Source: a virus
Direction: 5' to 3' (one strand)
IMG/VR virus record: IMGVR_UViG_3300046004_001116
Location: 1-64,000 of that record
DNA length: 64,000 nt
Every line of letters begins with the position of its first letter. Position 1 is the first letter of the stretch. The notes beneath the pieces are model-generated. The model made no database searches and was not told where the DNA came from. It saw only the letters and a program-made list of their open reading frames with translations. A program made the position numbers and the translations under genes. Positions 5,817 to 39,186 of this stretch are shown piece by piece.

Positions 5817-6298
5817 AAGTAATCTTTCTAGACATTGACGGTGTTTTGAATGTAATCCCACAAGGTCATGATGCTTTTGGTGGAATTTTTCATTCAGACT
5901 TTGTAGATAACCTAAAACGTATCATTGATGAAACTGATGCTAAGATCGTTATCAGTTCTTCTTGGAGACATAGCGGTTTACAAAAGATGCTTGATATGTG
6001 GGAGTTTAGAAATCTGCCTGGTGAAGTAATTGGTGTTACGCCAGATCTTTATCGTTTCTTAGATTTTGAAGGTGAAAGAACAATGGTTCGTGGAGATGAG
6101 ATACAAGCAGTTCTCAACATTCATCCAGAAATTACACATTATGTTATACTTGATGATGACACTGATATGTTAAAACATCAATTAGGAAACTTTGTGCAAA
6201 CGTCAAATAACATTAATCACCCAGACTGTATTGATATCGGATACGGGCTAACTAAAGAATGTACTAACAAAGCAATACGAATCTTAAATGCAAAATAA
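5813..6298 (+). CDS. HAD phosphatase (HAD_SAK_2, RNA-repair associated type)
   Basis: FLDIDGVL, IVISSSWR, RGDEI, YVILDDD. Confidence 0.8.
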   Translation: MKVIFLDIDGVLNVIPQGHDAFGGIFHSDFVDNLKRIIDETDAKIVISSSWRHSGLQKMLDMWEFRNLPGEVIGVTPDLYRFLDFEGERTMVRGDEIQAVLNIHPEITHYVILDDDTDMLKHQLGNFVQTSNNINHPDCIDIGYGLTKECTNKAIRILNAK

Positions 6299-7815: not shown

Positions 7816-7880
7816 TTAACATAAATTTAACACTTTAAATTTGCTTGGTATGTAATTTTTGGTTAATTTTATACTATAAT
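7816..7880 (+). promoter_or_regulatory. Bacteroidota sigma-A type early promoter with tandem TTAACA boxes
   Basis: TTAACA 7816/7827, TTTG 7840, TAATTTTA 7864 (20-nt spacer). Confidence 0.7.
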
Positions 7881-28336: not shown

Positions 28337-28618
28337 ATGAAACATATTCATAACTTTACAGAATTTATTAATGAAGCTACATCTGCTTATACCGAAATGA
28401 TTTTGTCTAAAGACCAAGATTTCGATCAAGTTAAAAAGTTACTTATAACCGATAAGAAAGCAAATCATCTAAATTTTACTCATTGGTCTCATGGTCAACC
28501 TTTAGGTTCAATCCGAGGACATTTAATTACTATGTTCTTCAATAATCCAAAATCCGAAGTTTCCGATTTCATTCAAAGGAATGACATCAAAATAGCAAAT
28601 AAATCCTATTTCGAATAA
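28337..28618 (+). CDS. Putative internal head protein
   Basis: MKHIHNFTEFINEA. Confidence 0.65.
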   Translation: MKHIHNFTEFINEATSAYTEMILSKDQDFDQVKKLLITDKKANHLNFTHWSHGQPLGSIRGHLITMFFNNPKSEVSDFIQRNDIKIANKSYFE

Positions 28619-28635
28619 ATAACTATAAACTCAAT

Positions 28636-29061
28636 ATGAAACACGTACAACAATTTGATGAATTTATTAATGAAGCTGCAAATGCAATAGTTAAACCTAA
28701 TGCAAAACTAAAAAGTGGTACAGGGTTTCCATACGCTTCTTTTTACTTGTCAACTCAAGCATTAGACATAATGATAAATTTTGACGACCCAAAACATATT
28801 GCTGTTATTAAACTGCTAGCCGACCAAGAAAAAGAAATGAAAGACAACGGCTTTTTAAGTAAAAGTTCAATGGATAAAGCAAGAACAGCATATAAAAACG
28901 CACTTGGGACTTATGTAGTGCAGGCAAAGTACGACGGCCCGGATATAACTTTCCGTTTGTCTAGTACGCCAGACGCTAACTTAGATGACGGTAGTAAAAA
29001 GCAATGGTTACCTGGATCAGAGAGCAGCGGCGGTGGAATTACAATGGCAAAGTACATTTAA
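28636..29061 (+). CDS. Putative internal head protein
   Basis: MKHVQQFDEFINEA; 5' region duplicated from the previous gene. Confidence 0.65.
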   Translation: MKHVQQFDEFINEAANAIVKPNAKLKSGTGFPYASFYLSTQALDIMINFDDPKHIAVIKLLADQEKEMKDNGFLSKSSMDKARTAYKNALGTYVVQAKYDGPDITFRLSSTPDANLDDGSKKQWLPGSESSGGGITMAKYI

Positions 29062-29115
29062 AACTTTTCTATTAAAAACAATATTTGCTGGTATAAAAAA
29101 ACAAAATAAGTAATA

Positions 29116-29811
29116 ATGAACAAAACACAATTTACTAATCGTTGGTCAAATATGAATTTGTCCCAACAGGAGTTAGACCGCAAATGGCGTTTACAATTAG
29201 AAGCGCAAGAACAAGAACTTATGATGGCTGAACAAGCTGTTTATTTGGCAAGTATTAATCCTATGAATGCACTGCATGTTGGTGCTTTTGGCGGAGGAAC
29301 TTTAACACCTCCTGAACCACCTGCACCGTCTTCACCATTAACAGTTTTACGGTATGCTACTTCACAAGGTGAAGAAGTTGTGTGGCCTGAAGATTTTCCA
29401 TTAACTTTTACGTTAGATCCAACTTTACCTGATTTTTCTTATACTCTTGATGTATCCTATATCCCACCATCTCAAGTCCCAACTCCTGCTGCTTTAATAG
29501 GTGTTACAATTGGAAATACAGTTACAAGTATTGGTGACCTTGCTTTTACTAATTGTTTTAATTTGGCATCTGTTACATTTGCGCCAATTTCAACAGTTAC
29601 AAGTATTGGTTCTAACGCGTTTTCAACTTGCCCCTCATTAACATCTATTGAAATTCCAGATTCAGTTACAAGTGTGGGTGGTAATGCATTTGCTAGTTCA
29701 GGATTACAAACTGTAACTATATCTTCAGCAACCGCAATTGCTATTGGTATAACATCACCTACTGTTGGGGTTAACTTTTTTGGAGTGACTGTTGATACTA
29801 TTCTTCCTTAA
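29116..29811 (+). CDS. BspA-type LRR_5 protein with QQELDRKWR N-terminal module
   Basis: VTSIGxxAFxxC...IPDSVTSVGGNAF repeats. Confidence 0.75.
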   Translation: MNKTQFTNRWSNMNLSQQELDRKWRLQLEAQEQELMMAEQAVYLASINPMNALHVGAFGGGTLTPPEPPAPSSPLTVLRYATSQGEEVVWPEDFPLTFTLDPTLPDFSYTLDVSYIPPSQVPTPAALIGVTIGNTVTSIGDLAFTNCFNLASVTFAPISTVTSIGSNAFSTCPSLTSIEIPDSVTSVGGNAFASSGLQTVTISSATAIAIGITSPTVGVNFFGVTVDTILP

Positions 29812-29861
29812 TAACGTAAAAGTACATTTAAAACTTTTTTCAACTTTTTTCACTAAATGTA

Positions 29862-29890
29862 AAACTAAGTAAAAAGGCAAGTATATATAA
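29862..29890 (+). promoter_or_regulatory. RAACT-N17-TATATAA promoter driving leader 1
   Basis: Same geometry at 34546, 38315, 43745, 61728. Confidence 0.65.
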
Positions 29891-29919
29891 TAAACAAAAC
29901 AATTAATAAATCAAAAACA

Positions 29920-30021
29920 ATGAAATCTCAAGTAATAAATATGGTCCCTGCGTATATTGCCAATCAGCCGATTGAGCAAAAGGAATCTTATTCTAAATCT
30001 GGAGATATTATATTTGAGTAA
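29920..30021 (+). CDS. Leader peptide of tRNA operon 1 (MKSQVINMVPAYIANQPIEQKESYSKSGDIIFE)
   Basis: A-rich start; contains TCTGGAG (29998-30004) complementary to the terminator arm. Confidence 0.8.
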   Translation: MKSQVINMVPAYIANQPIEQKESYSKSGDIIFE

Positions 30022-30046
30022 ATACACAACTATAACCAACATATCT

Positions 30047-30079
30047 AAGCTCCAGAATTAATTTTCTGGAGCTTTTTTT
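30047..30079 (+). terminator. Attenuator terminator 1
   Basis: aagctccagaa-ttaatt-ttctggagcttttttt. Confidence 0.85.
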
Positions 30080-30091
30080 ATTGCGATTAAT

Positions 30092-30147
30092 TTAACAAAA
30101 CTTTAACATATAGAATTTGCTTGGTATGAAATTATTGGTTAATTTTG
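30092..30147 (+). promoter_or_regulatory. Bacteroidota sigma-A type promoter with TTAACA boxes
   Basis: TTTG 30116, TAATTTTG 30140. Confidence 0.75.
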
Positions 30148-30172
30148 CTCTATAATTAAAAACAACATTATT

Positions 30173-30325
30173 ATGGCAACAATTACAACATACAAGATTA
30201 AAGAAAAGTACAAATCACTTTTAGCTACATATGCTTGGACTAAACTTGATTTAAACGGATCTTATTCTAAAGAAGATTGGAATAAAGCTGGTTTTAAAGA
30301 TTCTGTCTTAGATATTAATTGTTAA
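30173..30325 (+). CDS. Small hypothetical protein (50 aa)
   Basis: ORF MATITTYKIKEKY... behind the promoter. Confidence 0.5.
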   Translation: MATITTYKIKEKYKSLLATYAWTKLDLNGSYSKEDWNKAGFKDSVLDINC

Positions 30326-30690
30326 TAACTTTATGAATAAAAGTTTGCATTAGTCAATTTAATTGGTTAATTTTAACTAACAATAAAAATTTAATTATCA
30401 TGTCTATACAAAATCGAAAGTTAATCAGAAGCATATACGGAATCCACGGTCTAATCAATATTTTAAGTGGGTTTGACGTAAACGGAAATAATTGTTAAAA
30501 TTTCATTTAGCTTCGGCTAAGTATTATTCGTGGTACCAGGCGGGCAGTAGGGGTTACCGAATTAAAACAAACAAGAATGGTGAAATATGGGCTGGCCAGG
30601 CAACATAAAGTAACAACGACGCTCAGCGGTATCAATTCAAAACCTCCTCGTGGTGATACTGGAAACTTGATTCGTCAAGGCTAATTTGAA

Positions 30691-30703
30691 GTTCATTGAC
30701 ATA
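30691..30703 (+). promoter_or_regulatory. boxA-like antitermination signal (second copy 34860-34872)
   Basis: gttcattgacata / attctttgacata just before the first tRNA of each operon. Confidence 0.55.
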
Positions 30704-30715
30704 GTGATAACATTT

Positions 30716-30790
30716 ACGAGATTAGCTCAGTTGGTTCAGAGCAACTCTTTTACACGGAGAAGGTCACAGGTTCGAATCCTGTATCTCGTA
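30716..30790 (+). tRNA. trnV: tRNA-Val(TAC)
   Basis: Cloverleaf, loop TTTACAC. Confidence 0.9.
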
Positions 30791-30993
30791 CTAATGAATT
30801 AAACGGTCTAAGGATTAGGACGCTGGCGTAAGGCACCGGCTGAAACGCCGACCATCGTTGGAGAGATTCTACTCTCTAATTCATAACACACTGCAGTGAT
30901 TGCCGGCCACACGCATCGGTTCTTAACGGGAAATCGTTCTCGTCGTTAGGTGAACAGACCGGACAAATTCCTTAGGTGGTGCTAGGGTCAACT

Positions 30994-31067
30994 GCTGCTA
31001 TAGACGAATTGGTTAAGTCGTCGCCCTTTCAAGGCGGAGGTTGCGGGTTCAAGTCCCGTTGGCAGTA
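30994..31067 (+). tRNA. trnE: tRNA-Glu(TTC)
   Basis: Cloverleaf, loop CTTTCAA. Confidence 0.9.
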
Positions 31068-31073
31068 CAACAT

Positions 31074-31148
31074 GAGCGCTGAAGCACAATCGGACGTGCA
31101 CCTGGCATACGGCCAGTAGGATATAGGTTCGAATCCTATCTTTGCTCC
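31074..31148 (+). tRNA. Atypical/pseudo tRNA, loop CATACGG (A33)
   Basis: D and T arms intact, weak acceptor, no U33. Confidence 0.5.
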
Positions 31149-31156
31149 AAATACTT

Positions 31157-31230
31157 TCTCCTGTCGTCTAGTCGGCTCAGGACGCTGCCCTTTCACGGCG
31201 GTAACGCGGGTTCGAATCCCGTCGGGAGAA
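31157..31230 (+). tRNA. trnE: tRNA-Glu(TTC)
   Basis: Cloverleaf, loop CTTTCAC. Confidence 0.9.
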
Positions 31231-31332
31231 CAACACTACCGAATGGTGTAATCTATGTGTTAAAAGAACAGCGCTGGCTGAGACCAGAGTTCCACCGTAA
31301 TTGTAGTAATCGGTGATTCGGTAAACAATATT

Positions 31333-31404
31333 GGTTTCGTAGCTCAGAGGCAGAGCGGCACCCTGTTAAGGTGAGGGTCGGGATTTCGATATTCCCCGAG
31401 ACCG
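31333..31404 (+). tRNA. trnN: tRNA-Asn(GTT)
   Basis: Cloverleaf, loop CTGTTAA. Confidence 0.88.
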
Positions 31405-31415
31405 CAATTAAAAAA

Positions 31416-31586
31416 TAGCTTTCAGCCAAAGGTGGCGGGCAATACTTTTACTCAGTTATGTATGGACTGTCTTAGACGTAAGGTGGAAAATCATAAAGGT
31501 TTAAATAGGATATGACTCTGATTGTCGACGAGATGAGAGTATCTGATAAGTATCGCTGGGTGGGTTCGATTCCCATTGTGAGCTCA
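31416..31586 (+). ncRNA. tRNA-like RNA with ~100-nt extended arm replacing the anticodon arm
   Basis: AGCTTTCA/TGTGAGCT stem, D-like arm, T arm gtgggTTCGATTcccat. Confidence 0.55.
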
Positions 31587-31590
31587 AGAT

Positions 31591-31664
31591 TCCTCAGTAG
31601 CTCAGTTGGTTAGAGCGTCGGACTGTTAATCCGTAGGTCCTAGGTTCGAGTCCTAGCTGGGGAG
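31591..31664 (+). tRNA. trnN: tRNA-Asn(GTT)
   Basis: Cloverleaf. Confidence 0.92.
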
Positions 31665-31822
31665 CAAAAGTTGATTACTTTAGGTTACAGGAATTACCAG
31701 AAACCTGTCGACATACTCTTGGGCGTAAGGCAAGAGCAGATTTTGAACCAGGTTTAATCTGTAATGTAAACCTACTCGTATTTAACAATTATACGTTAAG
31801 TCTAATCAACTAAATTGTAACT

Positions 31823-31908
31823 GGCCTTGTAGCTCAATTGGATTGCATTACGCTTAGAGCCACCGACTTTTAATCGGTAGGTTGGGGGTTCGAGTCCCTC
31901 CAGGGTCA
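31823..31908 (+). tRNA. trnK: tRNA-Lys(TTT) with enlarged D loop
   Basis: Loop CTTTTAA; ~12 extra nt in the D loop. Confidence 0.8.
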
Positions 31909-32006
31909 CAAAGGAATAATTACTCTGGCGGTGGTGCGGGTAAGCGCCGGGAAGTAACGCCCGGTTGGCAAAGTAAATTATTCAGAGGTAAGGAAAAGAC
32001 TAAACT

Positions 32007-32079
32007 GGGGCTATGGTATAGATGGCTAACACACTTGCCTTGCACGCAGGAATCCCGAGTTCGAGGCTCGGTAGCTCCA
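32007..32079 (+). tRNA. trnA: tRNA-Ala(TGC)
   Basis: G3-U70, loop CTTGCAC. Confidence 0.92.
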
Positions 32080-32336
32080 CGGGAGTTTTTGAAACGGCCT
32101 ACTCTTTGAGGCACGTGATATTTGTACTTTAACAAAATTCACAGTATGGCAAGAGGGTTTTTGGAAGCGGCTTTAAGGTATAAGCAATGTATTTGACCAG
32201 AACAAAATCATAGTATAACTATCTTCTGTCACGTTAGCAGACCGGGTATGGCTACGCACAGTTTGGAAGTAATATGTGTATTAAACAAAACTTTCACCGC
32301 GGCGAAACGTTTCCCAAAACAAAGTAGTCGCAAGAA

Positions 32337-32421
32337 GGGAGTACGCCGGAGTTGGAGAGCCGGAGCGGTCTGTAACACCGTTGGCATTACGCCTGAGTAG
32401 GTTCGAATCCTACTACTTTCA
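32337..32421 (+). tRNA. trnY: tRNA-Tyr(GTA)
   Basis: Long variable arm, loop CTGTAAC. Confidence 0.9.
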
Positions 32422-32424
32422 CAA

Positions 32425-32503
32425 AAATTGAAGCGGAGGTAAGAGTTACATCAACTTTTTATTGGAAAAAACAAACAAACACTCTTCCTAATATTCTCAA
32501 TTT
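32425..32503 (+). ncRNA. Minimal Y-RNA-like gene
   Basis: GAAGCGG...GAGTTACATC / CTC...TAATATTCTC stem shared with the RNAs upstream of Ro60. Confidence 0.7.
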
Positions 32504-32506
32504 CAT

Positions 32507-32577
32507 TGTCCGATGGTGTAACGGTAACACTACTGTTTTTGGTGCAGTCATTCAAGGTTCGAATCCTTGTCGGATAA
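32507..32577 (+). tRNA. trnQ: tRNA-Gln(TTG)
   Basis: Cloverleaf. Confidence 0.9.
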
Positions 32578-32586
32578 CTATTATAT

Positions 32587-32659
32587 TGGAATATGGTATA
32601 ATGGCTCATTACACGTGGTTTTGGTCCACGCAATCAAGGTTCGATTCCTTGTATTCCAA
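32587..32659 (+). tRNA. trnQ: tRNA-Gln(TTG)
   Basis: Cloverleaf. Confidence 0.9.
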
Positions 32660-32664
32660 CAATT

Positions 32665-32739
32665 CGCGTAGCGATCCACAGAGAGAGGTTACCCGCCTTG
32701 GACGCGGGGTTATTGCAGGTTCGAGTCCTGTCTACGCGA
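32665..32739 (+). tRNA. trnP: tRNA-Pro(TGG), divergent D arm
   Basis: Loop CTTGGAC; perfect acceptor and T arm. Confidence 0.8.
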
Positions 32740-32750
32740 CAAATTTTTAA

Positions 32751-32823
32751 CGGGGTGTAGATCAGTTGGTAGATCGCGTGCTTTGGGAGCATGAGGCCGC
32801 AGGTTCGAGTCCTGTCACCCCGA
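32751..32823 (+). tRNA. trnP: tRNA-Pro(TGG)
   Basis: Cloverleaf. Confidence 0.92.
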
Positions 32824-32889
32824 CGAGACGAGACTGTTACTAATTCATAGGGGCCCATTCACGCAAGTGTCTGCATAGAATTAGAATTT

Positions 32890-32963
32890 AGGTGGTTAGC
32901 TCAACTGGTTAGAGCACTCGCCTGATACGCGAGAGGTTATGAGTTCGACTCTCATATCACCTA
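32890..32963 (+). tRNA. trnI: tRNA-Ile(GAT)
   Basis: Cloverleaf. Confidence 0.92.
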
Positions 32964-33031
32964 CTAAAAAATATAAAAGTCAAATGAAACAAATTTTAGT
33001 CAACTCCTCATAGGTTAGCATTGCTAAACTT

Positions 33032-33262
33032 ATGACTCAGAAATTGAGAATTTGGAGAGTAGTTCCCGTTCGTAACGGCGTTCAGGCTCCCACTTTTTTT
33101 GTAGAAACTACAGAAGAAGGACGCGACAAGGCAGAAGTATCTGCTTTAAAACAAGCAAGACAAAGGTCAGGCTTGAGTAAATTTGATTGTTGGAATTTCA
33201 ATCTTATCAAAACAGAATTAAGGTTAGATAAGTTTGGAAGATATGTAAAGTATCACCAATAA
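33032..33262 (+). CDS. Small hypothetical protein within the tRNA array
   Basis: 76-aa ORF filling an inter-tRNA gap. Confidence 0.6.
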   Translation: MTQKLRIWRVVPVRNGVQAPTFFVETTEEGRDKAEVSALKQARQRSGLSKFDCWNFNLIKTELRLDKFGRYVKYHQ

Positions 33263-33308
33263 TAAACTGGGCAGTTTTCGGTCTGCGTAATAATTAAAAC
33301 CGAAATTT

Positions 33309-33380
33309 GGTGATGTAGCTCAGCGGCAGAGCACCCGGCTCATATCCGGAAGGTCGAGGTCTCGGAATCCTCCATCGCTA
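33309..33380 (+). tRNA. trnM: tRNA-Met(CAT), atypical T loop
   Basis: Loop CTCATAT; T loop CTCGGAA. Confidence 0.75.
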
Positions 33381-33384
33381 CAAA

Positions 33385-33443
33385 TGTATACTTTAATATA
33401 CAATATGGTCTAAAACGGCTATAATTGTATATTAAAGTATACA
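33385..33443. repeat. 20-bp perfect inverted repeat
   Basis: tgtatactttaatatacaat / attgtatattaaagtataca. Confidence 0.85.
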
Positions 33444-33452
33444 AACAATAAA

Positions 33453-33594
33453 TTCCAGAAGCGGCAAAGAGAGTTACTTCGTCTGTTAAACGAGAGGTCG
33501 TAGGTTCGAGTCCTACTGCGTGTACCTTGATGGGAAACGTATAGCTCAGTTGGTTAGAGCGCTAAAAATCTCTCTCTTAATTATTCTCTGGCAA
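33453..33594 (+). ncRNA. YrlA-like Y RNA with permuted tRNA-like domain
   Basis: Shared terminal stem enclosing GTT hairpin, T arm, loop-closed acceptor, then D arm. Confidence 0.8.
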
Positions 33595-33597
33595 TTT

Positions 33598-33671
33598 GAC
33601 TCGGTAGCTCAGTTGGTAGTAGCACCTCACTTTTAATGAGGGGGTCGTGGGTTCGAGTCCCACCCGGGTCA
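33598..33671 (+). tRNA. trnK: tRNA-Lys(TTT)
   Basis: Cloverleaf. Confidence 0.92.
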
Positions 33672-33685
33672 CAAATATTAATCAT

Positions 33686-33763
33686 GGGAGCAGCTGGGAT
33701 AGCGCGGGTGGTGTCGAGCCACCTTTCACCGGTAGCTTGAGGTTCGAGTCCTCTTTGTTCCCC
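33686..33763 (+). tRNA. Atypical tRNA-like gene, 8-bp acceptor, loop TGTCGAG (G33)
   Basis: T arm tgaggTTCGAGTcctct; reduced D arm. Confidence 0.5.
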
Positions 33764-33777
33764 TAAATGTTATCAGT

Positions 33778-34029
33778 ATGACACGAGAACAGAAAATAGC
33801 AAAAAGGAAACTTCGTGCTTCTATCCACAGAGAAAAAAGAAACGAAAAGTACTTTAAAAAAATACGAGCGGCAAATGATATAGGCGGGTGGGTTCCACTT
33901 TATGCCGTTGATAGCCGTGGATACGTTTCAGGTTCATGGCCTGACTCAAGTAGCCCTACAGGATATTCACAAAGATGTTCTTATGATGCCTGGGGAACTT
34001 GTCAAAGTCCATGCAACGGAGACTGTTAA
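33778..34029 (+). CDS. Small basic/Cys-containing hypothetical protein
   Basis: 83-aa ORF ending CQSPCNGDC. Confidence 0.6.
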   Translation: MTREQKIAKRKLRASIHREKRNEKYFKKIRAANDIGGWVPLYAVDSRGYVSGSWPDSSSPTGYSQRCSYDAWGTCQSPCNGDC

Positions 34030-34033
34030 AAAT

Positions 34034-34092
34034 TGGGAGGTCGCATAGTTGGTTAGTGCTCATCTTCGGTGGTTCGAGTCCACCCCTCCCCA
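34034..34092 (+). ncRNA. tRNA-like RNA lacking the anticodon arm
   Basis: Acceptor, D and T arms intact; 8-nt linker tcatcttc. Confidence 0.7.
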
Positions 34093-34281
34093 CTAAGATT
34101 TAATCTGCTAAACGCAAAATGGTATGTTGCCGCCGATAACTACGGAAACACAAGCAAGGAAGGAGGTCACTTGCCGCATACAGGAAACACAGATCCGTTC
34201 ATTTTGTTAGTAAGGTATCGGGTACATTCGGTTGTACTTGGGTATTCACCAATCTGTGCCGGTGACAGATTAAATTTTTAT

Positions 34282-34355
34282 GGCCATGTAACTCAGTTGG
34301 TTAGAGTGCCCGCCTCATAAGCGGAGAGTCCTTGGTTCGAGTCCAAGCTTGGCCA
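34282..34355 (+). tRNA. tRNA-CAT (elongator Met or Ile2)
   Basis: Loop CTCATAA. Confidence 0.85.
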
Positions 34356-34545
34356 CATGAAAACGCAAGTAACGGTATTATTCCGAAGCGATGATAAGAA
34401 TTACAATTGGTCATCAGTATTATCTAAAGAAGTAGGATATGAATTTGTTAAACTACAGAAAATAGAGAACACGGATAATCCAAGATGGCCAAAATGGTCT
34501 TTTATCATTACTTACAAAAAAAGTAAATAAAAATGCAAAAGTGTA

Positions 34546-34574
34546 AAACTAACCGTTTTCACGTGTATATATAA
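34546..34574 (+). promoter_or_regulatory. RAACT-N17-TATATAA promoter driving leader 2
   Basis: Matches the 29862 element. Confidence 0.65.
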
Positions 34575-34596
34575 TAAACAACAAATAAATTAAACA

Positions 34597-34704
34597 ATGC
34601 AAACACAATCATTACATACAAGATCGTTTACGTCAAGCTGGAACTTATGTTTCGGACTAGGGCGCGATTGTGACATAGATCTGGAGGATCTGACTACTAT
34701 CTAA
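34597..34704 (+). CDS. Leader peptide of tRNA operon 2 (MQTQSLHTRSFTSSWNLCFGLGRDCDIDLEDLTTI)
   Basis: A-rich start; TCTGGAG at 34680-34686. Confidence 0.8.
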   Translation: MQTQSLHTRSFTSSWNLCFGLGRDCDIDLEDLTTI

Positions 34705-34729
34705 TGTAATTTGCATACAAGATATTTTC

Positions 34730-34762
34730 AAAGCTCCAGAATTAATTTTCTGGAGCTTTTTT
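34730..34762 (+). terminator. Attenuator terminator 2 (identical hairpin to terminator 1)
   Basis: aaagctccagaa-ttaatt-ttctggagctttttt. Confidence 0.85.
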
Positions 34763-34774
34763 ATTGCGATTAAT

Positions 34775-34830
34775 TTAACAAAACTTTAACATATTAAATT
34801 TGCTTTACATCTTTTAATTGGTTAATTTTA
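34775..34830 (+). promoter_or_regulatory. Bacteroidota sigma-A type promoter with TTAACA boxes
   Basis: TTTG 34799, TAATTTTA 34823. Confidence 0.7.
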
Positions 34831-34887
34831 TACTGTAATTAAAAACAACCATTAATTGCATTCTTTGACATACTGAAAACTAAAATT

Positions 34888-34960
34888 GGTGCTGTGGCAG
34901 ATCAGGTGATTGCGGCGGACTGAAAATCCGTAGGAGTGGGTTCGATACCCACCGGCACCA
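34888..34960 (+). tRNA. trnF: tRNA-Phe(GAA)
   Basis: Cloverleaf. Confidence 0.9.
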
Positions 34961-35075
34961 CACAAACTTATTTAAGGTTCGACCCTCACCCATTTTGCGC
35001 TCAATTCGCATTTACTTTGGAAGACTGGTTCTAGAGGGAGCTACCGACTGATAAGTGGCCGCACACGCGGCAAAT

Positions 35076-35150
35076 GCCTGAGTGGGTAAACTGGTAAAGC
35101 CGCTTGACTTAGGATCAAGAGTTCTGTGGGTTCGACTCCCACCTCGGGTA
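35076..35150 (+). tRNA. trnL: tRNA-Leu(TAG), short variable arm
   Basis: Loop CTTAGGA; A73. Confidence 0.85.
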
Positions 35151-35234
35151 CAAATTATTTAGTTCCATGCATAAGCTCAAACAGCTCCCTGAAATTACAT
35201 GGTTTAAAGGAGCTTAAACTAAATAATAAATTTT

Positions 35235-35311
35235 GGTGCCGCAGCATATCGGCGTATGATGCTCGCCTGTCACGTGGGAGATTGCGGGTTCGAATCCCGT
35301 CGGTACCGCCA
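35235..35311 (+). tRNA. trnD: tRNA-Asp(GTC), CCA encoded
   Basis: Cloverleaf, weak D arm. Confidence 0.88.
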
Positions 35312-35351
35312 TCTGGTTAAGATTCCAGAGAACAATCAAAAATCTACAAAC

Positions 35352-35425
35352 ACCCTCATGGTCCAGTTGGAGTGGATGTCGCCCTGTCACGGCGAAGATC
35401 GCGGGTTCGAGTCCCGCTGGGGGTG
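35352..35425 (+). tRNA. trnD: tRNA-Asp(GTC)
   Basis: Cloverleaf. Confidence 0.9.
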
Positions 35426-35531
35426 CAAAAAACTGGGGTAGAAAAATCTTAGGACGGCAATCCGTAGATGTAATACGATGGTTACTGCACAAAGAGAAAA
35501 GTAATTTGCCGATGAAATTCACTTAGCAGTT

Positions 35532-35619
35532 TTCCTTTTGATGAAATTGGCAAACATGGCTCGCGCGAAGCGAGTGCTCAGGGTTTACTCTGATAAAGGT
35601 TCGAGTCCTTTAAGGGAAA
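35532..35619 (+). tRNA. Atypical class II tRNA, loop CGCGAAG (CGA anticodon, G33, Leu-like body)
   Basis: Full cloverleaf with long variable arm, A73. Confidence 0.6.
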
Positions 35620-35644
35620 CAAATTTCAGGAGTAATTAACCTGA

Positions 35645-35781
35645 AGCTGAATGGTTCGAAACATTCGATTGGTCATGGTGTATTGGGCACGGTAGAACGG
35701 AGTAATCGTACGCAGAGCGTTAGGCTCTCAACGGCGGTGAAAGGGAAAACAGGTTAAAGGTTCGAATCCTTAGGATCAGCT
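35645..35781 (+). ncRNA. tRNA-like RNA with two T-loop hairpins
   Basis: AGCTGA/TCAGCT closure; gttcgaa motifs at ~35654 and ~35760; D-like arm. Confidence 0.45.
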
Positions 35782-35852
35782 TGCGTTAAAGTGTAAAGGT
35801 TGCATGGGACTCTCATAAGGTCTACGGGGTGGTTCGAGTCCACGCTACGCTA
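35782..35852 (+). tRNA. Degenerate tRNA-CAT
   Basis: Loop CTCATAA, mismatched acceptor stem. Confidence 0.5.
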
Positions 35853-35939
35853 CAAAATTCTAAGTGTGTCTTGGTACGCTCTGACAACCGTCAACGACAA
35901 GGTCTCGGTAGGCAAAACGCGTTTGATCCTACCCATTCT

Positions 35940-36013
35940 GCAGTAGTAGCTCAGTTGGTAGAGCGCTGCCTTGCCAAGGCAGAGGTTCGCGGGTTCGAAT
36001 CCCGTCTACTGCT
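35940..36013 (+). tRNA. trnG: tRNA-Gly(GCC)
   Basis: Cloverleaf. Confidence 0.92.
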
Positions 36014-36020
36014 CAAATAT

Positions 36021-36094
36021 GCGGGTATGGTGTTTAACGGTTAGCACGTGAGCCTTCCAAGTTTGAAGTTTCGGTTCGAATCCGAATATCCGCT
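36021..36094 (+). tRNA. trnG: tRNA-Gly(TCC)
   Basis: Cloverleaf. Confidence 0.9.
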
Positions 36095-36099
36095 CAACT

Positions 36100-36173
36100 G
36101 GTCTTGTAGCTCAACTGGATAGAGCATTGGTTTTCTAAACCAACGGTTATGGGTTCGATTCCCGTCAAGATCA
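36100..36173 (+). tRNA. trnR: tRNA-Arg(TCT)
   Basis: Cloverleaf. Confidence 0.92.
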
Positions 36174-36180
36174 CAAACAT

Positions 36181-36251
36181 ACGCCTATGGTGCAACGGTA
36201 GCATGACGGTCTCCAAAACCGTTGATAAAGGTTCGAATCCTTTTGGGCGTG
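36181..36251 (+). tRNA. trnW: tRNA-Trp(CCA)
   Basis: Cloverleaf. Confidence 0.92.
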
Positions 36252-36260
36252 CAAATATAA

Positions 36261-36347
36261 GGAGAGGTGCCAGAGTGGTCGATTGGACCGGTCTTGAAAA
36301 CCGGAGAGCGTGAAAGCGCTCCGTGGGTTCGAATCCCACCCTCTCTT
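36261..36347 (+). tRNA. trnS: tRNA-Ser(TGA)
   Basis: Class II cloverleaf. Confidence 0.92.
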
Positions 36348-36350
36348 CAA

Positions 36351-36498
36351 AATTAGAAGCGGTACATTGAGATACTTCAATATCCAAAACTGCCATTTGT
36401 TGGTTCGAGTCCAACCTGAGGTGTTAATAGCACCTCGGTGGTGAAATGGTAAACACAGCAGTCCCAAAACAAGACGCTCATGTAAACATTCTCTAATT
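36351..36498 (+). ncRNA. Second YrlA-like Y RNA with permuted tRNA-like domain
   Basis: TTAGAAGCGG-TACATTGAG / CTCATGTA-AACATTCTCTAA stem; T arm, loop-closed acceptor, D arm. Confidence 0.8.
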
Positions 36499-36503
36499 GA
36501 ATT

Positions 36504-36577
36504 GCTGGCGACGCATGAATGGTGGTGCACCGGATTTGTAACCCGGACTAGAGTCGGTTCGATCCCGACCGTCAGCT
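36504..36577 (+). tRNA. trnT: tRNA-Thr(TGT)
   Basis: Cloverleaf. Confidence 0.85.
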
Positions 36578-36583
36578 CAAAAT

Positions 36584-36654
36584 GGCCCTATGACCGAGCG
36601 GTTAGGTGCAGGTCTGCAAAATCTGTTAGGTTGGTTCGACTCCAACTGGTGCCT
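36584..36654 (+). tRNA. trnC: tRNA-Cys(GCA)
   Basis: Cloverleaf, U73. Confidence 0.9.
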
Positions 36655-36657
36655 CGA

Positions 36658-36852
36658 GAATAATCAGAGGACTCATCGCTGGAAACAGAGGAAGTTCGCG
36701 ACAACTAAACCTAACATGGGAGATGTAAAAATCGTTCGTACCACGGAAGTTGCAAGTTAAACAGTTTGAGGGTGTCGGTTTCCCTATGAGAACGGGTTAA
36801 TGCAAAGTCAAATGATGGGATAAAACAGAAACGCGGCTACGCTCAATTATTC
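36658..36852 (+). ncRNA. rnpB: Minimal RNase P RNA
   Basis: GAGGAAGTTCGCG (CR-I) and AACAGAAACGCGGCTA (CR-V) forming P4; P1 GAATAAT/ATTATTC. Confidence 0.8.
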
Positions 36853-36857
36853 AAATT

Positions 36858-36939
36858 GCCCAGGTGGAGAAATTGGTAGACTCGCCAGCCTAAGGAGCTG
36901 GTGCCGCAAGGCGTGAGGGTTCGAGTCCCTCCTTGGGTA
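36858..36939 (+). tRNA. trnL: tRNA-Leu(AAG)
   Basis: Class II cloverleaf, loop CTAAGGA. Confidence 0.88.
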
Positions 36940-36951
36940 CAAAATTAAAAT

Positions 36952-37041
36952 GGGCCGATTGGTGTAACTGGGAATGAATACCAGCTTGGGTTAACACGAA
37001 CCTGTAGGTTCGGCTGAGAGTTCGAATCTCTCATCGGTCCC
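36952..37041 (+). ncRNA. Atypical tRNA-like gene with 8-bp acceptor and no clear anticodon
   Basis: GGGCCGAT/ATCGGTCC; T arm gagagTTCGAATctctc. Confidence 0.55.
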
Positions 37042-37157
37042 GGTATCTCCCAAGGGAGAAAACTCTGGTTGGTGGTCTGACCTTATAGACCGCAATAAGA
37101 CTGTCAAGGTAGGACGTCAGTTATAGAGAGGTGAGCCATACCTATTCCTCTCAACAT

Positions 37158-37232
37158 GGTGATTGTAGCTCAGTTGGTTAGAGCGCTGGTTTGTGGTACC
37201 AGAGGTCGCGGGTTCGACCCCCGTCATTCACC
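37158..37232 (+). tRNA. trnH: tRNA-His(GTG)
   Basis: G-1/C73, loop TTGTGGT. Confidence 0.92.
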
Positions 37233-37247
37233 CTAAAAAGAATACTT

Positions 37248-37397
37248 ATGAAAGGCATTGAATTAATTCCAATTGGGCCTGTTTCTGAAGAAGCAAAGGC
37301 TAGGTTAAAGAAACGATCTGAAAGGGATAAAGCAAGATTAGACCAAATGGTTAAAGACGCTAAAGAAGGCAAGTATGATCATATAATAAACAAATAG
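37248..37397 (+). CDS. Small hypothetical protein
   Basis: ATG 37248, MKGIELIPIG... Confidence 0.5.
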   Translation: MKGIELIPIGPVSEEAKARLKKRSERDKARLDQMVKDAKEGKYDHIINK

Positions 37398-37402
37398 AAA
37401 GC

Positions 37403-37624
37403 ATGAAAGCGGGAGCTAAAACAACAGACAAAGATTTTAATAACTTAATTACATACTTGGAAAGATTCAAAGGTGCTAATATTACAATCACTGTTGATAA
37501 AAATCCTTCGCCTGAAAAGATTGCTTATATAAAAGAAAGAATAAAGATAAGTGAGCAACGTGCTCAAAACGGCCGGGTGGTGGAACTGGTAGACACGCTG
37601 GGTTTAAGCCCCAGTGGGCAGTAA
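37403..37624 (+). CDS. Small hypothetical protein whose 3' end overlaps tRNA-Leu
   Basis: ORF reads into the tRNA at 37571. Confidence 0.45.
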   Translation: MKAGAKTTDKDFNNLITYLERFKGANITITVDKNPSPEKIAYIKERIKISEQRAQNGRVVELVDTLGLSPSGQ

Positions 37625-37656
37625 TGCCCGTGCGGGTTCGAATCCCGCTCTGGTCA
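37571..37656 (+). tRNA. trnL: tRNA-Leu(TAA)
   Basis: Class II cloverleaf. Confidence 0.92.
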
Positions 37657-37660
37657 CAAA

Positions 37661-37746
37661 GGAGAGGTAAGCATAGTGGTACTGCAGCGGATTGCTAATC
37701 CGTTCGGCGTTTATTCGTCGCGTGGGTTCGATCCCCACTCTCTCCG
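37661..37746 (+). tRNA. trnS: tRNA-Ser(GCT)
   Basis: Class II cloverleaf. Confidence 0.9.
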
Positions 37747-37765
37747 CAATATATAATAAAACAAT

Positions 37766-37837
37766 GGCCTGTTAGTTTAACGGATAGAACTCTGGTTTAC
37801 GGCATCAGCGATGGGGGTTCGAGTCCCTCACGGGTCA
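37766..37837 (+). tRNA. trnR: tRNA-Arg(ACG)
   Basis: Loop TTACGGC. Confidence 0.88.
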
Positions 37838-37861
37838 CTAATCAAATAAAAAACAAATGTC

Positions 37862-38314
37862 ATGGTATTTAGAAAGCTCGCAGATAGGCAGGAAGTTGAC
37901 TTATTACCATACGCACATGATTTCCTAACGGAACATCCAGAGCATAAACTCTACGTGGGTACGGATAGTCAAAACATCGGAAAAACTACAGTTTATGCAA
38001 CAGTTATTGTGTTTCATAATAACAACGGTGGTGGTCACGTTTTATATTCTAAGGTAACAGTACCTAGAATCGCGGACAGATGGACCAGATTGTGGAAAGA
38101 AGTAGAAATGTCAGTTCAAGCAGCTGACCTTTTAAAAGAAGGAGATTTTCATCCGGTAGATTTTATTGACTTGGATTTAAACCCAGACCCAAGATACAAA
38201 TCGAATATGGTCTTAAGATCAGCTGTTGGTTATGTTGAGAGTTTTGGTTACAAAGCAAGAGTAAAACCGAATGCGACTATTGCATCTTGTGTTGCAGATA
38301 GTATCTTCCGTTAA
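37862..38314 (+). CDS. RNase H-like YkuK (DUF458) family protein
   Basis: YVGTDSQ, RLWKEV..S, KPNA.IAS.VAD. Confidence 0.8.
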   Translation: MVFRKLADRQEVDLLPYAHDFLTEHPEHKLYVGTDSQNIGKTTVYATVIVFHNNNGGGHVLYSKVTVPRIADRWTRLWKEVEMSVQAADLLKEGDFHPVDFIDLDLNPDPRYKSNMVLRSAVGYVESFGYKARVKPNATIASCVADSIFR

Positions 38315-38407
38315 GAACTATTATATAAGAAGTGAATATATAATCTATAATACTTTGGGGTGTAAAAGCCCCAAATATTTTTACTAACTAAAATAAAACA
38401 AAAAAAC

Positions 38408-38764
38408 ATGAAGTAGGTACAAACAAAATTCTCCGAAACAAAATTAATCGTTGTCACTAGATCTGATATTTCTCCGGGCTATCAAGTAGTCCAATCAACA
38501 CACTCAATCGCTGATTTCTCATATCAGCATCCTGAAGCTTTCCAACAGTGGAAGAATGATTCAAACTCAATCATTTGCCTTTCAGTGCCTTCAGAAGAGA
38601 AACTTCTCAAACTATTTAATAAATTCGAAAACCGTATACCGGCTACAGCGTTCTATGAACCAGACGTATCCGAATGGACTTCCGTGTGCTTACTTGGCAC
38701 CCCAGAGATTCGTAAAGCACTTTCGCATTTACCGCTATCATTAAAAAACTCCGATGTATTATGA
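38408..38764 (+). CDS. Peptidyl-tRNA hydrolase Pth2-like protein with in-frame TAG at codon 3 (not in ORF track)
   Basis: ATG AAG TAG then open frame ...KLIVVTRSDISPGYQVVQSTHS...IICLSV...FYEPD...TSVCL...LSHLPL. Confidence 0.7.
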
Positions 38765-39186
38765 AAGGAATCTTAAAAGTTAGAAGCTTTGATGCGCTTA
38801 AAAAATTAAGTACAAAAAGAGCTTACGGTAAACACAAAAGATTACATGAAAGAATGAGACATATTCATACGTCTATTCTATTTCTTGAAGAACACAAATT
38901 ACTTACTGTGGATATGCTATGGGATATGTTATGTGTTTACATTAGCTATCAAAGAGAAGCAGGTAAACTTTATTATGTTTACGCTTACGCTAGACCAGAT
39001 AGTTGGTATAAGACAAACAATCGAATATTTACCGAATTTACACCAGAACATGTTGATTCGTATATTAATCATATACTTACAAATGCTTATAGCCATGTAA
39101 TGAATCTGCCGTATGAACTACATAAAAAATACAGAGACATTATCATCGGGAGAGAAAAAGAACTAAAATTAAAAAACAACAATTAA
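38761..39186 (+). CDS. Hypothetical protein
   Basis: ATGA overlap with the Pth2-like gene. Confidence 0.6.
   Translation: MKGILKVRSFDALKKLSTKRAYGKHKRLHERMRHIHTSILFLEEHKLLTVDMLWDMLCVYISYQREAGKLYYVYAYARPDSWYKTNNRIFTEFTPEHVDSYINHILTNAYSHVMNLPYELHKKYRDIIIGREKELKLKNNN

Follow-up and report, generated by a model that had tools for sequence, protein, structure and literature searches.

Among the leader peptides of amino-acid operon attenuators, trpL, hisL, leuL and pheL report on a single signal, and enterobacteria also possess multivalent attenuators, such as the ilvGMEDA leader with its Ile, Val and Leu codons and the thr leader with its Thr and Ile codons. It is an established principle of attenuation that a stalled ribosome cannot distinguish a missing tRNA from an uncharged one. 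T-box riboswitches bind one uncharged tRNA directly and do not need translation. PMC3082878 deals with pheL.

The tRNA genes carried by phages are widespread; what they are for is debated, the two proposals being codon compensation and the replacement of tRNAs destroyed by host defences. In full-text literature, without supplementary files, no paper on leader peptides before tRNA genes was found, and nothing was found on the regulation of phage tRNA genes. Judged from the available text of two articles, the nearest published case found is the stress-induced trn tRNA operon of Anabaena PCC 7120, which is silent until translation is impaired (PMC8421152, PMC10272220) and is controlled by the transcriptional repressor TrcR (PMC10272220).

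The stretch of DNA analysed here (the window, 64,000 nt) makes up the first 64 kb of a phage genome of 85.9 kb (85,919 nt; 35.5% GC), and the phage is found across many lake-water metagenomes (sequencing runs). It carries two tRNA arrays, each behind a short open reading frame and an intrinsic terminator. The reading preferred here, with a probability of about 0.68, is that the ORF before the second array, leader 2, serves as the sensor in ribosome-mediated attenuation of transcription, reporting the decoding speed of the codons served by that array.

Results

Two tRNA arrays divide the amino acids between them

The tRNA genes form a single cluster on one strand, and a gene for an RNase-H-like protein follows it:

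30716-37838, + strand, tRNA cluster, which splits into arrays 1 and 2
30716-34356, + strand, tRNA array 1: V, E, V, E, N, N, K-like, A, Y, Q, Q, P, P, I, M, K, M (ARAGORN, Rfam)
34888-37838, + strand, tRNA array 2: F, L, D, D, S, G, G, R, W, S, T, C, L, H, L, S, R
37862-38314, + strand, YkuK/DUF458 RNase-H-like gene (Pfam PF04308, E 1.9e-24)

The tRNAs of array 1 serve V, E, N, A, Y, Q, P, I, M and K only, and those of array 2 serve F, L, D, S, G, R, W, T, C and H only. The anticodons of array 2 are Phe gaa, Leu tag, aag and taa, Asp gtc (twice), Ser cga, tga and gct, Gly gcc and tcc, Arg tct and acg, together with those of Trp, Cys and His; the Thr tgt tRNA (36504-36578) rests only on Rfam (38.8 bits) and relaxed ARAGORN. 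Throughout this work the tRNA sets depend on ARAGORN defaults, and some contigs are incomplete. Four weak calls made in array 1 by relaxed ARAGORN (Ser 31206, Ile 31515, Arg 33687 and Ile 33878) were not counted because they had no Rfam tRNA match at E <= 0.1.

Several other features of the cluster were recorded. The Lys(UUU)-like tRNA gene of array 1 (31823-31908, + strand; Rfam 58 bits) has a D loop enlarged by about 12 nt, and its region aligns near-identically to the contig of a close relative, L047, in which ARAGORN calls tRNA-Lys(ttt) at 5856. A weak Rfam match to the HDV-like ribozyme of F. prausnitzii (30629-30691, + strand; 33.1 bits, gathering score 44, E 0.004) ends 25 nt 5' of the first array-1 tRNA, a weak match to YrlA of the Y-RNA-like family lies within array 1 (33455-33594, + strand; 34.3 bits, gathering score 69), and a weak Rfam match to archaeal RNase P RNA lies in a gap of array 2 (36659-36851, + strand; 26.4 bits, gathering score 84). 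The motif TTGACATA(C/G)TG.. occurs at 34866-34880 and 30697-30711, and also in the unrelated phages L020, L021 and L028, 8-25 nt 5' of the first tRNA; it might serve as a promoter or as a signal for processing. The YkuK/DUF458 gene adjoins tRNA arrays in many unrelated phage contigs (loci L001-L121) and may have a role in tRNA processing.

A leader cassette precedes each array

The elements in front of the two arrays, with all genome copies of one of them, are as follows as sequence features:

29862-29890, + strand, promoter-like box of leader 1, the same AACT-N15-TATATATAA box as that of leader 2
29920-30021, + strand, leader 1 ORF, 33 codons, MKSQVINMVPAYIANQPIEQKESYSKSGDIIFE
29998-30004, + strand, TCTGGAG in leader 1, located by motif search
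30047-30080, + strand, leader-1 terminator (hairpin 30047-30074), the same hairpin as in leader 2, -17.5 kcal/mol
34546-34574, + strand, promoter-like box of leader 2: AAACT, 15 nt, TATATATAA; function inferred
34597-34704, + strand, leader 2 ORF, 35 codons, MQTQSLHTRSFTSSWNLCFGLGRDCDIDLEDLTTI, with an ATG after an A-rich stretch
34680-34686, + strand, TCTGGAG in leader 2, codons 28-30, the proposed antiterminator strand (region 2)
34730-34765, + strand, leader-2 intrinsic terminator with a 12-bp stem, 6-nt loop and T run, -18.5 kcal/mol
34769-34850, + strand, second promoter-like element, between the terminator and tRNA-Phe: TTTAACA repeats, TTTGC, 13 nt, TTGGTTAATTTTA
Genome positions 7840, 30116, 30344, 34799, 67231, 68826, 69729 and 70894, + strand, eight near-identical promoter-like elements (TTTAACA repeats, TTTGC, TTGGTTAATTTTR)

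The order is thus the same before each array: the AACT-N15-TATATATAA box, the leader ORF, a gap of about 25 nt from the leader stop codon to the terminator, the terminator, and a copy of the eight-copy promoter-like element. The terminators are near-identical (AAGCTCCAGAA, loop TTAATT, TTCTGGAGCTT, T run), and terminator and promoter together make up a duplicated cassette with 85% identity over 93 nt. The exact terminator pattern had 0 matches in IMG/VR, and megablast of 29800-35000 against the phage collection returned tRNA-sized matches only, in 4 records.

Promoter activity was inferred from recurring sequences. The pattern [GT]ATATATAA has 8 matches on the + strand, mostly 5' of genes or RNAs, 5 of them with AACT 15-16 nt upstream according to the authors' own reading of the sequences, and the leaders of relatives are preceded by similar ATATATAA or TATATTTATAT boxes. 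The eight-copy element resembles the Bacteroidota promoter consensus, -33 TTTG and -7 TAnnTTTG, which is a hint as to the phylum of the host. It lies between terminator and array at both window arrays and in the relatives L043, L045 and L047, and its other copies sit directly 5' of protein genes. Two small ORFs of 50 and 32 codons (30173-30325 and 30400-30498, + strand) lie between the leader-1 terminator and array 1, each after its own copy of the element; in L047 the array starts 127 nt past the terminator. One RNA-library contig spans 34221-34792 and is uninformative on transcription, RNA ends and read-through, the data from two RNA and two DNA runs being contigs only, with heavy cross-matching from the tRNAs of other organisms.

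Since this eight-copy promoter, which the original prediction had left out of account, comes after the terminator, leader 2 cannot be the sole gate in this phage, and the leader-terminator unit could be a separate small transcription unit. The window arrays probably also have a leader-independent supply through it, unregulated and perhaps early, and an attenuator would tune only the transcription arriving from upstream. That read-through is dispensable for array expression in this lineage lends weight to an alternative, on the whole unlikely, in which the leader is translated and tuned to the tRNAs of its array and the output is not classical antitermination. Through the terminated leader RNA or its state of translation, the output might instead be the stability or processing of upstream transcripts, interference with the downstream promoter, or a response of opposite sign, and the signal might be amino-acid charging or global translation capacity instead of tRNA amounts.

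The leader peptides match the arrays behind them

The match in composition between leader and array was observed directly. Of the 35 residues of leader 2, 28 are amino acids that array 2 serves (the array-2 set, {F,L,D,S,G,R,W,T,C,H}); in codons 2-24 the share rises to 20 of 23, and the three exceptions there, Q2, Q4 and N16, count against the attenuator reading. A, K, P, V and Y are absent, as stated in the original prediction, which had also noted that Lys is common in this genome (8.0% of 21,619 residues in 82 long ORFs). All the codons that it had listed (TCA, TCG, AGC, TTA, CTA, AGA, CGC, TTT, TTC, GGA, GGG, GAT, GAC, ACA, ACG, CAT, TGG and TGT) occur in leader 2, and every tRNA onto which it had mapped them was found in array 2, Thr tgt by Rfam and relaxed ARAGORN only. 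Its claim that nearly every isoacceptor of the array is covered held as well: leader 2 contains a readable codon for 15 of 16 anticodons, gcc being the sole miss, under wobble rules chosen by the authors (G34 reads C/U; U34 A/G; C34 G; A34 U/C/A). None of 200,000 coding windows equalled this coverage (maximum 14, mean 8.5 of 16). In the permutation test that had been suggested, the leader composition was compared with 200,000 random 34-residue windows of phage proteins, giving P = 7e-5.

Leader 1 is the mirror image. Its residues fall in the array-1 set {V,E,N,A,Y,Q,P,I,M,K} in 26 of 33 cases (P 0.006 against 200,000 phage protein windows) and, over codons 2-22, in 20 of 21, and its codons are readable by 10/10 array-1 anticodons (P 0.013). 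Taken jointly, the two leaders split between the sets with a Fisher P of 2e-6, and no draw in 200,000 protein windows reached both biases. Base composition (33% GC in leader 1, 42% in leader 2) was rejected as the source of either bias because 20,000 composition-keeping nucleotide shuffles of each leader gave P = 5e-4 for leader 1 and 1.5e-4 for leader 2, with no bias in the other five frames. Among 676 six-frame ORFs of 25-60 codons, five match the bias of leader 2, and it alone of these also holds all ten amino acids of the set.

Synonymous codons in both leaders are rarer than those of the phage genes (P = 0.0016 for leader 2, P 0.028 for leader 1). In leader 2, rare codons such as TCG, AGC, CTA, CTG, CGC, GGG and ACG address individual isoacceptors, a usage that fits the sampling of isoacceptors.

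A possible short antiterminator lies near the end of the leader ORF

In both leaders TCTGGAG can pair with CTCCAGA of the terminator 5' arm (7 bp, predicted at about -12.0 kcal/mol), and this possible alternative pairing is found within the minimum free energy (MFE) structure of both transcripts when they are cut before the terminator 3' arm. The heptamer occurs only 7 times on the + strand of the 85,919 nt, and 4 of the 7 are the two leaders and the two terminator 3' arms. Its spacing to the stop codon is 15 nt in leader 2 and 14 nt in leader 1, that is, within 1 nt as originally predicted. When compared with shuffled leaders, the pairing had P values of 0.004-0.006 for leader 1 and 0.026-0.038 for leader 2. 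The attenuator reading is weakened here, the antiterminator being only 7 bp long (-12 vs -18.5 kcal/mol for the terminator) and the shuffle P values modest; its shortness is a further point for an output other than classical antitermination.

Changes in close relatives

The same cassettes were found in the metagenome contigs L043, L045 and L046/L047, whose YkuK-like proteins are 99%, 97% and 93% identical to that of the window, respectively. Leader 1 of L047 differs from that of the window by 12 non-synonymous and 3 synonymous changes, and the peptide sequence is therefore not conserved. Within codons 2-22, all five amino-acid changes (V9I, P10A, I13N, N15I and I18N) stay in set 1; in codons 23-33, changes move freely in and out of the set. 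Leader 2 carries C18G and I27M in L047, and W15T, N16D, C18W, I27M and D28G in L045, so that in the latter the sole Trp codon is lost at codon 15 and regained at codon 18, with Cys kept at codon 25. The terminator and TCTGGAG are invariant across the leader-2 copies of L043, L045 and L047.

One observation counts against the attenuator reading: the near-identical contigs L043 (at 5588) and L044 (at 24) have an extra tRNA-Lys(ctt) within array 2, which breaks the ten/ten split, and leader 2 contains no Lys codon there.

Leader modules in other phages

A single-protein search for YkuK-like gene loci in IMG/VR confirmed 0 of 18 candidates. An alignment of 14 homologues led to 41 loci and a scan of metagenomes to 80, a total of 121, many with tRNA arrays. 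Modules were selected by a filter of the authors' own making, which asked for a hairpin and T run at most 900 nt 5' of a tRNA and an ATG ORF of 20-70 codons ending at most 60 nt before the hairpin.

Arrays that cover almost all amino acids have leaders with 19-20 kinds of amino acid. The leader of L020 contains all 20 in 27 residues (P 1.5e-4), those of L005, L009 and L022 all 20 in 38, 40 and 49 residues, and those of L041 and L011/L012 contain 19 kinds; for these complete-array leaders, nulls drawn from proteins of the window phage gave values from 1.5e-4 to 0.05. Such leaders include amino acids for which ARAGORN found no tRNA in their own array (F, L and Y in L005; A, C, I and Y in L022), which counts against the attenuator reading and would suit a general gauge of translation; two complementary leaders in one genome, as in the window, point instead to set-specific sensing.

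Partial arrays have correspondingly partial leaders. The leader of L069, which precedes the array H,S,S,R,Q,T,L,I,L,L, starts with MLHLSTISRLSLQHLTLR, and its residues 2-18 are drawn from the array's seven amino acids only. The L095 array is F,P,A,W,Q,I,K,N,G,V,Y,R, and of the 32 residues that its leader has upstream of the antiterminator segment, 30 come from that set. When ten leaders were swapped among arrays, the mean z was 2.3 with their own array and 0.15 with others (permutation P 3e-5). This swap test took 10 of 26 distinct ORFs, complete-array leaders, the homologues L046, L086, L104 and L121, and four overlapping or out-of-frame ORFs having been excluded. The last four (L009, 24 aa; L054, 22 aa; L050, 52 aa; L086, 60 aa) were also dropped before antiterminators were tabulated.

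Of 22 modules scored, 17 have the best partner for the terminator 5' arm at most 23 nt from the stop codon of the leader; in the other 5 it lies away from the stop codon, and P exceeds 0.1 in 8 of 22, two points against the attenuator reading. The antiterminator sequence varies by family and changes with the terminator (TCTGGAG, GCCGGGT, GTCAGGG, GGAGGCT, AGATCTGGA). Counted by family, a near-stop partner is present in 10 of 13 (P about 1e-4 if chance is taken as 0.25), both the grouping into 13 families and the chance level being the authors' own judgement. For the nine modules whose best partner is near the stop, residues before the antiterminator segment are in the set in 179 of 243 cases, vs 24 of 61 from the segment onward (P 1.3e-6), Thr having been added to the array-2 set of the window. 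Confinement of the match to the part upstream of the segment is what an attenuator predicts, because only stalls upstream leave the strand free. The head/tail test overcounts because three of its nine modules are homologous, and the pooled tests in general do so because some modules are homologous (L086, L095, L104, L121), the filter moreover being the authors' own.

Other phages contribute nine modules with a gap of 7-30 nt from the end of the terminator to the first tRNA, and read-through is therefore the only route into the array there. A dispensable read-through, which the window allows, thus does not extend to these phages, where the terminator abuts the first tRNA. That the composition match ends where the antiterminator segment begins, and that this segment changes together with the terminator arm across families, also argues against a non-classical output.

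Discussion

The locus was set against the features of a ribosome-mediated attenuator. A short ORF with a plausible start, on the same strand and upstream of the genes, is present as leader 2; it is enriched in codons that report on the pathway (P values from 7e-5 to below 5e-6); an intrinsic terminator stands between it and the genes; and, in silico only, the 3' part of the ORF can supply an antiterminator whose formation excludes the terminator. Dependence of the genes on read-through, with no promoter after the terminator, is not met in the window, where a promoter-like element occupies 34769-34850, and is met in the nine modules of other phages, with a gap of at most 30 nt. Enzymes of biosynthesis or transport, which would be expected downstream of an attenuator of the trp, his or ilv type, are absent, and 17 tRNA genes are found in their place.

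The original prediction, that leader 2 is a peptide surveying the isoacceptors of its array and controlling the terminator, is supported at the level of sequence. Within the window this support consists of the enrichment in the set, the anticodon coverage, the mirror-image leader 1 and the antiterminator present in the MFE of truncated transcripts; from comparison come the in-set changes of close relatives, whereby the evolution of the match could be followed, the matching leaders of other phages and the restriction of the match to the part upstream of the antiterminator.

In the mechanism proposed, transcription would start at the AACT-N15-TATATATAA box, and a ribosome would translate the 35-codon ORF, codons 2-24 of which would sample ten amino acids and 15 of 16 anticodons, often through rare synonymous codons. 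A ribosome that decodes fast would reach the last codons and cover TCTGGAG (34680-34686), the terminator at 34730-34765 would fold, and transcription would stop. If the ribosome waits at a codon whose tRNA is scarce, the free TCTGGAG would pair with CTCCAGA, no terminator would form, and RNA polymerase would enter the tRNA genes. The result would be negative feedback on the supply of the array-2 tRNA set, leader 1 acting likewise for the ten amino acids of array 1. Inference alone, with no evidence from expression, stands behind promoter activity, leader translation, terminator read-through, the direction of the response and what is sensed (amount or charging of tRNA). The inability of a stalled ribosome to tell a missing tRNA from an uncharged one leaves charging as a possible signal within the alternative of a non-classical output or input.

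That the leaders are merely ordinary small phage genes with insulating terminators, resembling the arrays by chance or as a by-product, is very improbable, since even if the shared TCTGGAG could have been inherited with the duplicated terminator-promoter cassette (85% identity, 93 nt), and even in the absence of expression evidence for the leader, there remain a joint probability of about 1e-7 for the two biases in shuffles, the outcome of the swap test across 10 modules (3e-5), a leader 1 that took 12 non-synonymous vs 3 synonymous changes and kept its set membership, unlike a folded functional peptide, and the failure of Pfam to find anything in a set of four small ORFs from the tRNA region that did not include the leaders.

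To return to the attenuator, a broader proposition, on which the evidence is evenly poised, is that several phage lineages carry a previously undescribed class of leader peptide, a 'test strip' on which the decoding repertoire of its own tRNA array is written out, each block being switched on only when its own codons are slow. Complete arrays would then go with leaders of all 20 amino acids, and split arrays with split leaders. Host anticodon nucleases or shut-off that deplete tRNAs could be the trigger, and in that case the leader would both act as a homeostat and form the sensing arm of a counter-defence. If the attenuator reading is true, a leader that reads the decoding speed of its own tRNAs would close a self-measuring feedback loop on translation capacity, attenuation of the trp type would extend to RNA genes, and annotators would gain a rule for recognising such mini-genes. 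A single genome in which two arrays take ten of the 20 amino acids each, and two leaders follow the same division, is an unusually clean natural experiment, and the idea is therefore directly testable with reporter constructs and codon swaps.

Among known systems, T-box riboswitches likewise couple the status of tRNA to terminator read-through; they do so by direct binding of one uncharged tRNA without translation, whereas the phage leader would need to be translated, and Rfam gave no T-box match in 28500-39000 at E <= 0.1. The drug-inducible leader peptides of erm and mef/mel, as presented in the available text of PMC4335068, share the principle that ribosome stalling in a leader ORF remodels the downstream RNA, but there the stall comes from an antibiotic and a specific nascent peptide, not from tRNA supply. 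With the Anabaena trn operon, as far as the accessible text of the two articles goes, the phage locus shares a horizontally mobile tRNA array, with expression that, on the attenuator reading, likewise increases when decoding is impaired; control in Anabaena is by a repressor, and the terms 'leader peptide', 'attenuat' and 'terminator' do not occur in that text of PMC8421152 and PMC10272220.

The closest likeness in design is to the attenuators of amino-acid operons, which also combine a short ORF rich in sensing codons, an intrinsic terminator, a 3' segment of the ORF that pairs with the 5' arm, and read-through upon stalling. The phage leader differs from them in having no runs of a single codon, with roughly 1-5 codons for each of ten amino acids and 15 anticodons addressed, and its relatives in other phages include leaders with all 20 amino acids. 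Furthermore, the genes behind the phage terminator encode tRNAs and not biosynthetic enzymes, so that, unlike in amino-acid operons, the regulated gene product is the sensed molecule itself.
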